64,000 nucleotides of DNA, taken from Escherichia coli. GTDB lineage: Bacteria > Pseudomonadota > Gammaproteobacteria > Enterobacterales > Enterobacteriaceae. Positions 1 to 2,697 of the stretch are shown here, piece after piece. Below the pieces are notes generated by a model that saw only the letters and a list, made by a program, of their open reading frames with translations, searched no databases and was not told the DNA's origin. The stretch is from NCBI RefSeq assembly GCF_044324875.1, contig NZ_CP172185.1; one strand, given 5' to 3'. Both the position numbers and the translations under genes were made by a program. Each line of letters begins with the position of its first letter. The first letter of the stretch is position 1.

Positions 1-894
<894 letters not shown>

Positions 895-1100
895 TTAACA
901 TATGTTGTTATTTTGCACGGTTTTTGTCGGGTATGGATTTGGCGATTGCTTCACAAATGCACACTTTCAGGGCAACAACTGCCTGATTTTTGGGCAAGAT
1001 AATTAACGTTTTCGTATAGTAACAGAGTGAAAGTATTTTAAATCAAGGGATTAGATTTATGCTTTAATCGCAAATTGCGATCTAAATCAAATTAATCAGT

Positions 1101-1127
1101 TAAAGATAACCGCAGCGGGGCCGACAT
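1101..1127 (+). promoter_or_regulatory. Sigma-28 (FliA)-type promoter upstream of aer: TAAAGATA-N11-GCCGACAT
   Basis: Close match to the FliA consensus TAAAGTTT-N11-GCCGATAA about 50 bp upstream of the aer ATG; aer is a known flagellar class III gene. Confidence 0.6.
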
Positions 1128-1176
1128 AAACTCTGACAAGAAGTTAACAACCATATAACCTGCACAGGACGCGAAC

Positions 1177-2697
1177 ATGTCTTCTCATCCGTATGTCACC
1201 CAGCAAAATACCCCGCTGGCGGACGATACCACTCTGATGTCCACTACCGATCTGCAAAGCTATATCACTCATGCTAATGACACTTTTGTGCAGGTGAGCG
1301 GCTTTACCTTGCAAGAGTTACAAGGGCAGCCGCACAACATGGTGCGTCACCCGGATATGCCAAAAGCGGCGTTTGCAGATATGTGGTTCACCCTGAAAAA
1401 AGGGGAGCCCTGGAGCGGCATCGTGAAAAATCGCCGCAAAAATGGCGACCATTATTGGGTGCGGGCCAATGCGGTACCGATGGTGCGCGAGGGAAAAATC
1501 AGTGGCTATATGTCGATTCGTACCCGGGCGACGGATGAAGAGATCGCGGCGGTGGAGCCGCTGTACAAAGCGTTGAACGCCGGACGTACCAGTAAGCGTA
1601 TTCATAAAGGCCTGGTGGTGCGTAAAGGCTGGCTGGGTAAACTGCCTTCATTACCGCTTCGCTGGCGGGCGCGTGGCGTGATGACCCTGATGTTTATCTT
1701 GCTGGCGGTCATGCTTTGGTTTGTTGCTGCCCCGGTGGTGACGTATATCCTCTGTGCGTTAGTGGTATTGTTGGCAAGCGCCTGTTTTGAATGGCAGATT
1801 GTCCGCCCGATAGAAAATGTCGCCCGTCAGGCACTGAAGGTGGCGACCGGAGAGCGTAATAGTGTTGAGCATCTGAATCGCAGCGATGAGCTGGGGCTGA
1901 CATTACGCGCGGTAGGGCAGCTTGGCCTGATGTGCCGTTGGCTAATTAACGATGTCTCAAGCCAGGTGTCCAGTGTCAGAAACGGCAGTGAGACGCTGGC
2001 GAAAGGCACCGATGAACTGAACGAACATACCCAGCAGACAGTTGATAACGTTCAGCAAACGGTGGCGACCATGAACCAAATGGCGGCGTCGGTGAAACAG
2101 AACTCTGCCACGGCGTCGGCTGCCGATAAACTTTCTATCACTGCCAGTAATGCGGCAGTGCAGGGCGGGGAGGCGATGACCACGGTGATCAAGACAATGG
2201 ACGATATCGCCGATAGTACCCAGCGCATTGGCACCATTACTTCGCTGATTAACGATATTGCGTTTCAGACCAATATTCTGGCCCTGAATGCGGCGGTGGA
2301 AGCGGCACGAGCCGGCGAACAAGGCAAAGGTTTTGCAGTGGTGGCAGGGGAAGTGCGTCATTTAGCCAGCCGCAGCGCCAATGCTGCCAACGATATTCGC
2401 AAGCTGATTGATGCCAGTGCTGATAAGGTGCAATCCGGTTCGCAGCAGGTACACGCAGCCGGACGGACGATGGAAGATATTGTGGCACAGGTGAAAAACG
2501 TCACCCAGTTGATCGCCCAGATTAGCCATTCAACGCTGGAACAGGCCGATGGGCTTTCCAGCCTGACCCGTGCAGTGGATGAGCTTAACCTCATCACCCA
2601 GAAAAATGCCGAGCTGGTGGAAGAGAGTGCGCAGGTGTCGGCGATGGTGAAACACCGCGCCAGCCGACTGGAAGACGCGGTGACGGTGCTGCATTAA
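1177..2697 (+). CDS. aer: Aerotaxis receptor Aer (PAS-FAD sensor plus methyl-accepting signalling domain)
   Basis: 506-aa ORF with N-terminal PAS region, membrane hairpin and C-terminal MCP signalling domain; SD AGGA upstream of ATG. Confidence 0.95.

Follow-up and report, generated by a model that had tools for sequence, protein, structure and literature searches.

The interval 1066–1127 of the window, the 64,000-nucleotide stretch of E. coli DNA analysed here, is the core of the already characterized E. coli aer promoter, whose σ28 (FliA) elements and cAMP receptor protein (CRP) site are known anatomy. The best explanation of the interval, to which we assign a probability of roughly 0.88, is that it holds this known promoter, with σ28 elements and CRP at −49.5, and that the conspicuous 15-bp dyad within it, ATCGCAAATTGCGAT, is not a separate operator. 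The original prediction had proposed a near-consensus FliA promoter in front of aer and, upstream of it, a 15-bp dyad that could be a site for an additional regulator. The promoter had been placed exactly, at 1101–1127, and the same 27-nt string has been mapped and mutationally validated (PMC2859248) and is a FliA ChIP-seq site. An additional regulator does act upstream, namely CRP at TGCGA-N6-TCAAA with its centre at 1083.5; the dyad, centred at 1074, is not the site that it uses. The aer promoter was dissected between 2007 and 2010 and is the founding case of σ28 promoter activation by CRP from the unusual position −49.5.

The dyad and the σ28 motif lie in a 416-bp divergent control region between patA (ygjG), which runs leftward from approximately position 760 of the window, and aer. 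Window positions 700–1300 were matched in 5,421 of 5,426 complete E. coli genomes, in which the annotated genes are ygjG (putrescine aminotransferase, patA) and aer. Over this 601-bp query the window strain and K-12 MG1655 share 97.3% identity, and only 151 of the 5,421 genomes reach at least 99% identity to the window. Among seven aligned E. coli strains, the differences in the intergenic region are concentrated at 860–1062; the σ54 element, the CRP box, the σ28 elements and the aer 5′ untranslated region (UTR; 44 nt, counted from the inferred start) are without variation. Within the promoter, the window differs from K-12 at −70, −67 and −34, all of which are non-element positions, and the octamers, the 11-nt spacer length, the CRP 22-mer and the dyad are identical at the same locus in K-12 (PMC2859248). 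The start site and the activity in the window strain are assumed by transfer from K-12, given the identity of the core-element sequences, and no functional difference between the two strains is expected at this promoter. Published K-12 coordinates were converted to window coordinates, the mapping being cross-checked by the FliA motif and by the coordinate of a predicted site in another paper (Table 1).

Table 1 Features of the patA–aer control region and of aer, in window coordinates, with positions relative to the aer transcription start in parentheses.
Feature	Position	Strand	Basis
NtrC ChIP-seq peak for ygjG	~775–855		
ArcA peaks	~903–928		Near TGTTAACATATGTTGTTA (893–910)
FNR ChIP-seq summit	~1016		
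GCTTTAA in the window, GGTTTA in most orthologues	1061–1067		FeBABE cuts at −72 and −64; αCTD site 18.5 bp upstream of the CRP centre (PMC2859248)
Perfect dyad ATCGCAA-A-TTGCGAT (ATCGCAAATTGCGAT)	1067–1081 (−66 to −52)		7+7 pairs around a single central base; centre 1074 (−59)
CRP (cAMP receptor protein) 22-bp site AATTGCGATCTAAATCAAATTA	1073–1094		Match to consensus AAATGTGATCTAGATCACATTT 17/22, core 8/10
σ28 (FliA) −35 octamer TAAAGATA	1101–1108 (−32 to −25)	+	Point mutations at −32, −30 and −28 severely cut activity (PMC2859248); 1.76 bits per column
σ28 −10 octamer GCCGACAT, CGA core at −11 to −9	1120–1127 (−13 to −6)	+	CGA to GCT gives the no-FliA activity level (PMC2859248); 1.83 bits per column
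aer transcription start (+1)	1133	+	K-12 primer extension transferred to identical sequence; size approximate, ±1 nt
aer coding sequence (506 aa; aerotaxis sensor receptor with PAS and MCP-signal domains)	1177–2697	+	ORF list; RefSeq annotation of homologous E. coli loci; Pfam domains of near-identical proteins

In K-12, the promoter elements, the start, the dependence on FliA and on CRP, the −49.5 position and the positions of the α-subunit C-terminal domains (αCTD) have all been established by experiment. Hollands, Lee, Lloyd & Busby (2010, Mol Microbiol 75:1098; PMC2859248) described one promoter at K-12 aer, of the form TAAAGATA-n11-GCCGACAT, with a single primer-extension start 6 bp downstream of the −10 octamer and with activity that is lost in a fliA deletion. 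Their numbering, in which CGA occupies −11 to −9 and the T of TAAAG is −32, places +1 at window position 1133. Primer extension combined with a fliA mutant, which the original prediction had proposed as a check on the aer start, had therefore been published in that study, and the start lies downstream of the motif. Point mutations at −32, −30 and −28 and at −11 to −9 left activity severely reduced or abolished it, σ28 polymerase transcribed aer in vitro and σ70 polymerase did not, and KMnO4 detected melting from −10 to +4 (PMC2859248). FliA ChIP-seq provides a peak upstream of aer with the motif TAAAGATAACCGCAGCGGGGCCGACATA, and loss of fliA lowers aer RNA from 225 to 12 (Fitzgerald et al. 2014).

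Compared with the σ28 consensus TAAAGTTT-N11-GCCGATAA, the two octamers each match at 6 of 8 positions (12/16 in all), with the TAAAG and GCCGA cores intact on either side of the 11-nt spacer (1109–1119). The window has one copy of the string TAAAG-N14-GCCGA where 0.14 would be expected, and one or more copies arise in 14 of 100 shuffles. By itself this count is only mildly unusual; the string is found upstream of aer, at a fixed distance, in 21 of 21 orthologues. These orthologues comprise 18 Enterobacteriaceae aer loci from a genome scan (L007–L024; Aer identity 73–95%), to which E. fergusonii, C. amalonaticus and C. sedlakii were added; Salmonella is not among them, as it occurred neither in the 80 loci retained by the scan nor in the best 120 protein hits. 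Information content is given throughout as bits per column for the window plus the first 18 orthologues, aligned without gaps and anchored on the −35 element; on this scale the σ28 spacer reaches 0.74.

CRP is needed directly at aer, apart from its effect on FliA levels, and acts at one site centred at −49.5, its role having been demonstrated by gel shift, by crp deletion with fliA supplied in trans and by in vitro transcription (PMC2859248). With the numbering of that study this centre falls at window position 1083.5. Activation by CRP was abolished when the site was shifted to −41.5, −44.5 or −54.5, and a site at −61.5 left only σ28-independent activity; gel shifts of aer gave a single CRP complex (PMC2859248). 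Mutagenesis of the CRP site is cited there to Hollands et al. 2007. The aer200 fragment of PMC2859248 starts at approximately window position 1042 (primer D53041) and includes the whole dyad. FeBABE cleavage at −72/−64 and at −38/−30 located αCTD approximately 18.5 bp to either side of the CRP centre (PMC2859248). The downstream contact, at approximately −31, overlaps the −35 octamer, and the upstream one agrees with the conserved GGTTTA at −72 to −67, which carries 1.23 bits per column.

The same CRP site was derived from conservation independently of the paper, and its centre agrees with the published −49.5 (PMC2859248). Its half-sites are TGCGA (1076–1080) and TCAAA (1087–1091), centred between 1083 and 1084. 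A CRP-like 22-mer with at least 17/22 matches overall and at least 8/10 in the core occurs once in the 64-kb window and in none of 40 shuffles. TG(C/T)GA-N6-TC(A/G)nn stands exactly 25 nt upstream of TAAAG, counted from T to T, in 21 of 21 orthologues, and in Cedecea-type genomes the half-site is the canonical TGTGA. The left half-site, TGCGA, carries 1.87 bits per column. It belongs to another conserved stretch immediately upstream of the −35 element, TTGCGATCTAAATCAAATTTAAC, which includes only the right arm of the dyad. The arrangement of CRP at −49.5 and σ28 elements is thus kept at constant spacing in at least 21 Enterobacteriaceae lineages, which supports the odd spacing being functional.

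Taken as the known promoter, the interval would work as follows. One CRP–cAMP dimer would occupy 1073–1094, and its activating region 1 would contact the α C-terminal domains, seated on A/T-rich DNA approximately 18.5 bp to each side of the CRP centre, and thereby recruit polymerase; aer would consequently be made only with the flagellar cascade on and glucose scarce. The right arm of the dyad, TTGCGAT, would be the CRP half-site TGCGA with one flanking base on each side, and the left arm, ATCGCAA, would be the DNA between the upstream αCTD contact and the CRP box, a mirror image of the right arm by chance. The relevant symmetry would then be TGCGA-N6-TCAAA and not the more conspicuous perfect dyad, and the earlier reading of the dyad would be plausible but wrong.

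A second σ28 promoter directly activated by CRP, that of trg, shares the organization of aer and its dependence on FliA and CRP (PMC2859248). When trg is aligned on its −10 GCCGA using the genome sequence (the text copy of the PMC2859248 supplement has two extra bases in trg), TGTGA occupies −57 to −53, where aer has TGCGA, and the distance from the CRP half-site to GCCGA is identical in the two promoters. The trg CRP box is weaker, at 13/22, and the position equivalent to the dyad pairs at only 2 of 7 positions, so the dyad is not part of the CRP/σ28 architecture. Recruitment through activating region 1 and αCTD is common to aer and to the Class I (−61.5) and Class II (−41.5) CRP-dependent σ70 promoters, of the lac and galP1 types; at aer the downstream αCTD has the Class I placement relative to CRP and the upstream αCTD that of Class II (PMC2859248), whereas a CRP centre at −49.5 is nearly inactive at σ70 promoters. 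The class 3 flagellar σ28 promoters (fliC, tar, motA and flgM) have TAAAG-N14-GCCGA, FliA dependence and ChIP-seq occupancy in common with aer; they neither bind CRP nor need an activator (PMC2859248), whereas aer matches the consensus less well and is CRP-dependent when polymerase is limiting.

The dyad does have perfect 7-bp arms, as had been claimed, but it lies at 1067–1081 and not at 1066–1080, a shift of one base. It cannot be extended, the A at 1066 being opposite the C at 1082, and it starts 34 bp upstream of the −35 element. The left arm occupies 1067–1073 and the right arm 1075–1081, the latter overlapping the CRP left half-site, and the CRP centre is 9.5 bp downstream of that of the dyad. 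The window contains 23 perfect dyads with 7-bp arms and a spacer of 0–3, where dinucleotide shuffles give 17.2 ± 4.2, and 7 with a spacer of 1, where they give 4.2 ± 1.9; when the 416-bp intergenic region alone is shuffled, 14% of the shuffles contain one or more such dyads. Near-copies of the dyad, with at most three mismatches, number 6 within the window against 5.2 expected.

The two arms differ in conservation. The right arm holds 1.65 bits per column, and the part of the left arm outside the CRP 22-mer (−66 to −61) 0.53 bits, against 0.51 for the background at −90 to −73. All seven pairs are present only in E. coli and Citrobacter, and six of seven in Pluralibacter, in RIT691 and in one divergent Escherichia; 13 of the 21 orthologues retain one to five. 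In E. fergusonii the left arm reads GGAAGAA, with one pair of seven, and the CRP box and the σ28 motif are kept. The left arm shows two natural substitutions, A to G at 1067 (strains NC101 and SCPM) and T to A (Pluralibacter), and each breaks the symmetry with no compensating change. From this conservation and from the dyad statistics, the dyad is most likely incidental.

Several specific identities for the dyad were rejected. A hairpin or terminator is impossible, since 7-bp arms with a 1-nt loop cannot fold. The dyad fits none of the consensus sequences usually given for PurR and other LacI-type repressors, NtrC, FNR, CRP in an alternative register, ArcA and Lrp, and it fits T-N11-A, the generic LysR consensus, in a trivial sense only. 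A second CRP site, with TCGCA of the left arm as its right half-site, would have TTATG as its partner (TTGTG in K-12), a match of 1/5 in register, and is also disfavoured by the single CRP complex in the published gel shift (PMC2859248).

The dyad could instead be the operator of a second, unidentified dimeric helix-turn-helix regulator, specific to E. coli and Citrobacter, that antagonizes CRP-dependent recruitment of σ28 polymerase, a proposal that we regard as improbable. Its site would share DNA with the upstream αCTD contact and with the CRP site in its upstream half, and −66 to −52 would be an effective place for such anti-activation; the 7+7 symmetry is perfect, and six of the seven pairs survive in Pluralibacter and RIT691. 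Further in its favour, TCGCA at −65 to −61 is without variation in E. coli and five Citrobacter species. Across these genomes only 1 of 6 left-arm columns is variable, against 23 of 32 non-element columns nearby, namely the σ28 spacer, −38 to −33 and −5 to +10 (hypergeometric, one-sided p ~0.018). Dyads of this size nevertheless occur at chance frequency, the window has no extra copies beyond chance, and the left arm stands at background information across the 18 orthologues. E. fergusonii, the nearest to E. coli of the other Escherichia species sampled, has an unrelated left arm in an otherwise intact promoter; both natural left-arm changes destroy the symmetry uncompensated, and trg is without the dyad.

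The published record also argues against such an operator, as no transcription factor is reported at the position of the dyad in the ChIP/SELEX literature searched. No cognate protein was found in that literature, a search that lay outside the supplementary tables of most high-throughput studies, and the literature searched contained no mutation confined to the left arm. The publications searched on aer and patA, including ChIP-exo, SELEX and IHF work, name no further factor at the dyad; they mention binding by σ70 holoenzyme and H-NS. Were an operator nevertheless present, the left arm would have been recruited to it in E. coli and Citrobacter, and a regulator of ATCGCAAATTGCGAT competing with CRP and the upstream αCTD would be a third input to aer, beyond the flagellar cascade and cAMP.

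If the dyad is incidental to the known promoter, as we favour, a small puzzle is left over in the constant flank at −65 to −61. Judged from the aligned sequences, this stretch is under some constraint in the E. coli/Citrobacter lineage. We infer that the constraint comes from the CRP–αCTD–DNA complex, because FeBABE cuts at −72 and −64 place the stretch within that complex, adjoining the CRP box.

A very improbable reading assigns the dyad, or a box overlapping it, to FNR, the oxygen-sensing paralogue of CRP, which would make the CRP site a CRP/FNR hybrid coupling aer or patA to anaerobiosis. The box at 1077–1090, GCGATCTAAATCAA, does resemble a hybrid site, matching TTGAT-N4-ATCAA at 8 of 10 positions with a perfect ATCAA as its right half and sharing its centre with the CRP site, and an FNR ChIP-seq peak in the intergenic region is assigned to ygjG. 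The summit of that peak (K-12 3,217,259, approximately window 1016) lies, however, ~67 bp away from the centre of the CRP site and ~58 bp away from that of the dyad, and FNR therefore probably does not use the box. An FNR-like motif with 7/10 matches lies nearer to the summit, at 1033–1046. The left half-site of the box, GCGAT, is without the TT favoured by FNR, and the half-sites of the dyad are in the wrong order and at the wrong spacing for FNR or CRP.

That the dyad serves the divergent patA/ygjG gene and not aer, for instance as a repressor site or a distal site of enhancer type, is scarcely credible: the 416-bp control region is shared and patA is under NtrC/σ54, ArcA and FNR regulation, but the dyad lies ~250 bp upstream of the σ54-type −24/−12 element (821 to 806, minus strand), was placed more than 140 bp from every mapped peak assigned to patA and is unlike the NtrC, ArcA or FNR consensus, and the right arm and CRP box are still kept in three orthologues without patA upstream (Cedecea, Ent_Ag1 and Ent_R1). 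None of the published NtrC, ArcA and FNR binding events falls at the dyad centre, and binding of NtrC or ArcA to the dyad on behalf of patA was rejected, since these two proteins have their peaks elsewhere (Table 1).

The intergenic region contains other elements besides those of the aer promoter. The σ54-type element upstream of patA/ygjG, TGGCGC-N5-CTGCA at 806–821 on the minus strand, is constant in the seven E. coli strains, and together with the NtrC peak at ~775–855 it agrees with the known control of ygjG by nitrogen. A conserved block, GTGAAAGTATTTTAAATCAAGGGATTAGA, spans 1028–1056 (core 1041–1053) and contains a perfect IHF core, WATCAANNNNTTR (AATCAAGGGATTA), at −92 to −80 relative to the aer start; 11 of 21 orthologues retain the specified bases of this core, and its N4 varies freely. 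The block is dispensable for control by CRP and FliA, since the published aer200 fragment cuts through it. It is overlapped by the FNR-like motif at 1033–1046, with the FNR summit ~25 bp away. A FITBAR scan (PMC3098098) had predicted a weak site, apparently for NagC, gttaattatcttgcccaaaaatc, at 985–1007 between aer and patA. A σ70-like TGGGCA-18-TATAGT (991–1020) and a terminator-like hairpin (970–984) are both of a kind found at chance frequency.

Downstream of the start, the aer 5′ UTR carries three ArcA-type direct repeats with 11-bp phasing, GGTTA-N6-TGTTA-N6-TGTCA, on the minus strand at 1134–1160 (+2 to +28), and its TTAACA-N5-ATAACC is kept in most orthologues. The published ArcA peaks map elsewhere, at ~903–928. 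Possible roles for this conserved element are ArcA binding, an effect on translation or targeting by a small RNA.

The promoter of E. fergusonii is a mosaic when its aer locus (L087, approximately 500–700) is compared with window positions 1040–1133. From −60 to +1 it is Citrobacter/Enterobacter-like, with an A/T-rich spacer and GCCGAAAT, and upstream of −60 it is unrelated. E. coli has −72 to −39 in common with Citrobacter, combined with a G+C-rich spacer of its own, ACCGCAGCGGG, and GCCGACAT. This pattern suggests past recombination or segment replacement, with putative breakpoints at the edges of the CRP box.
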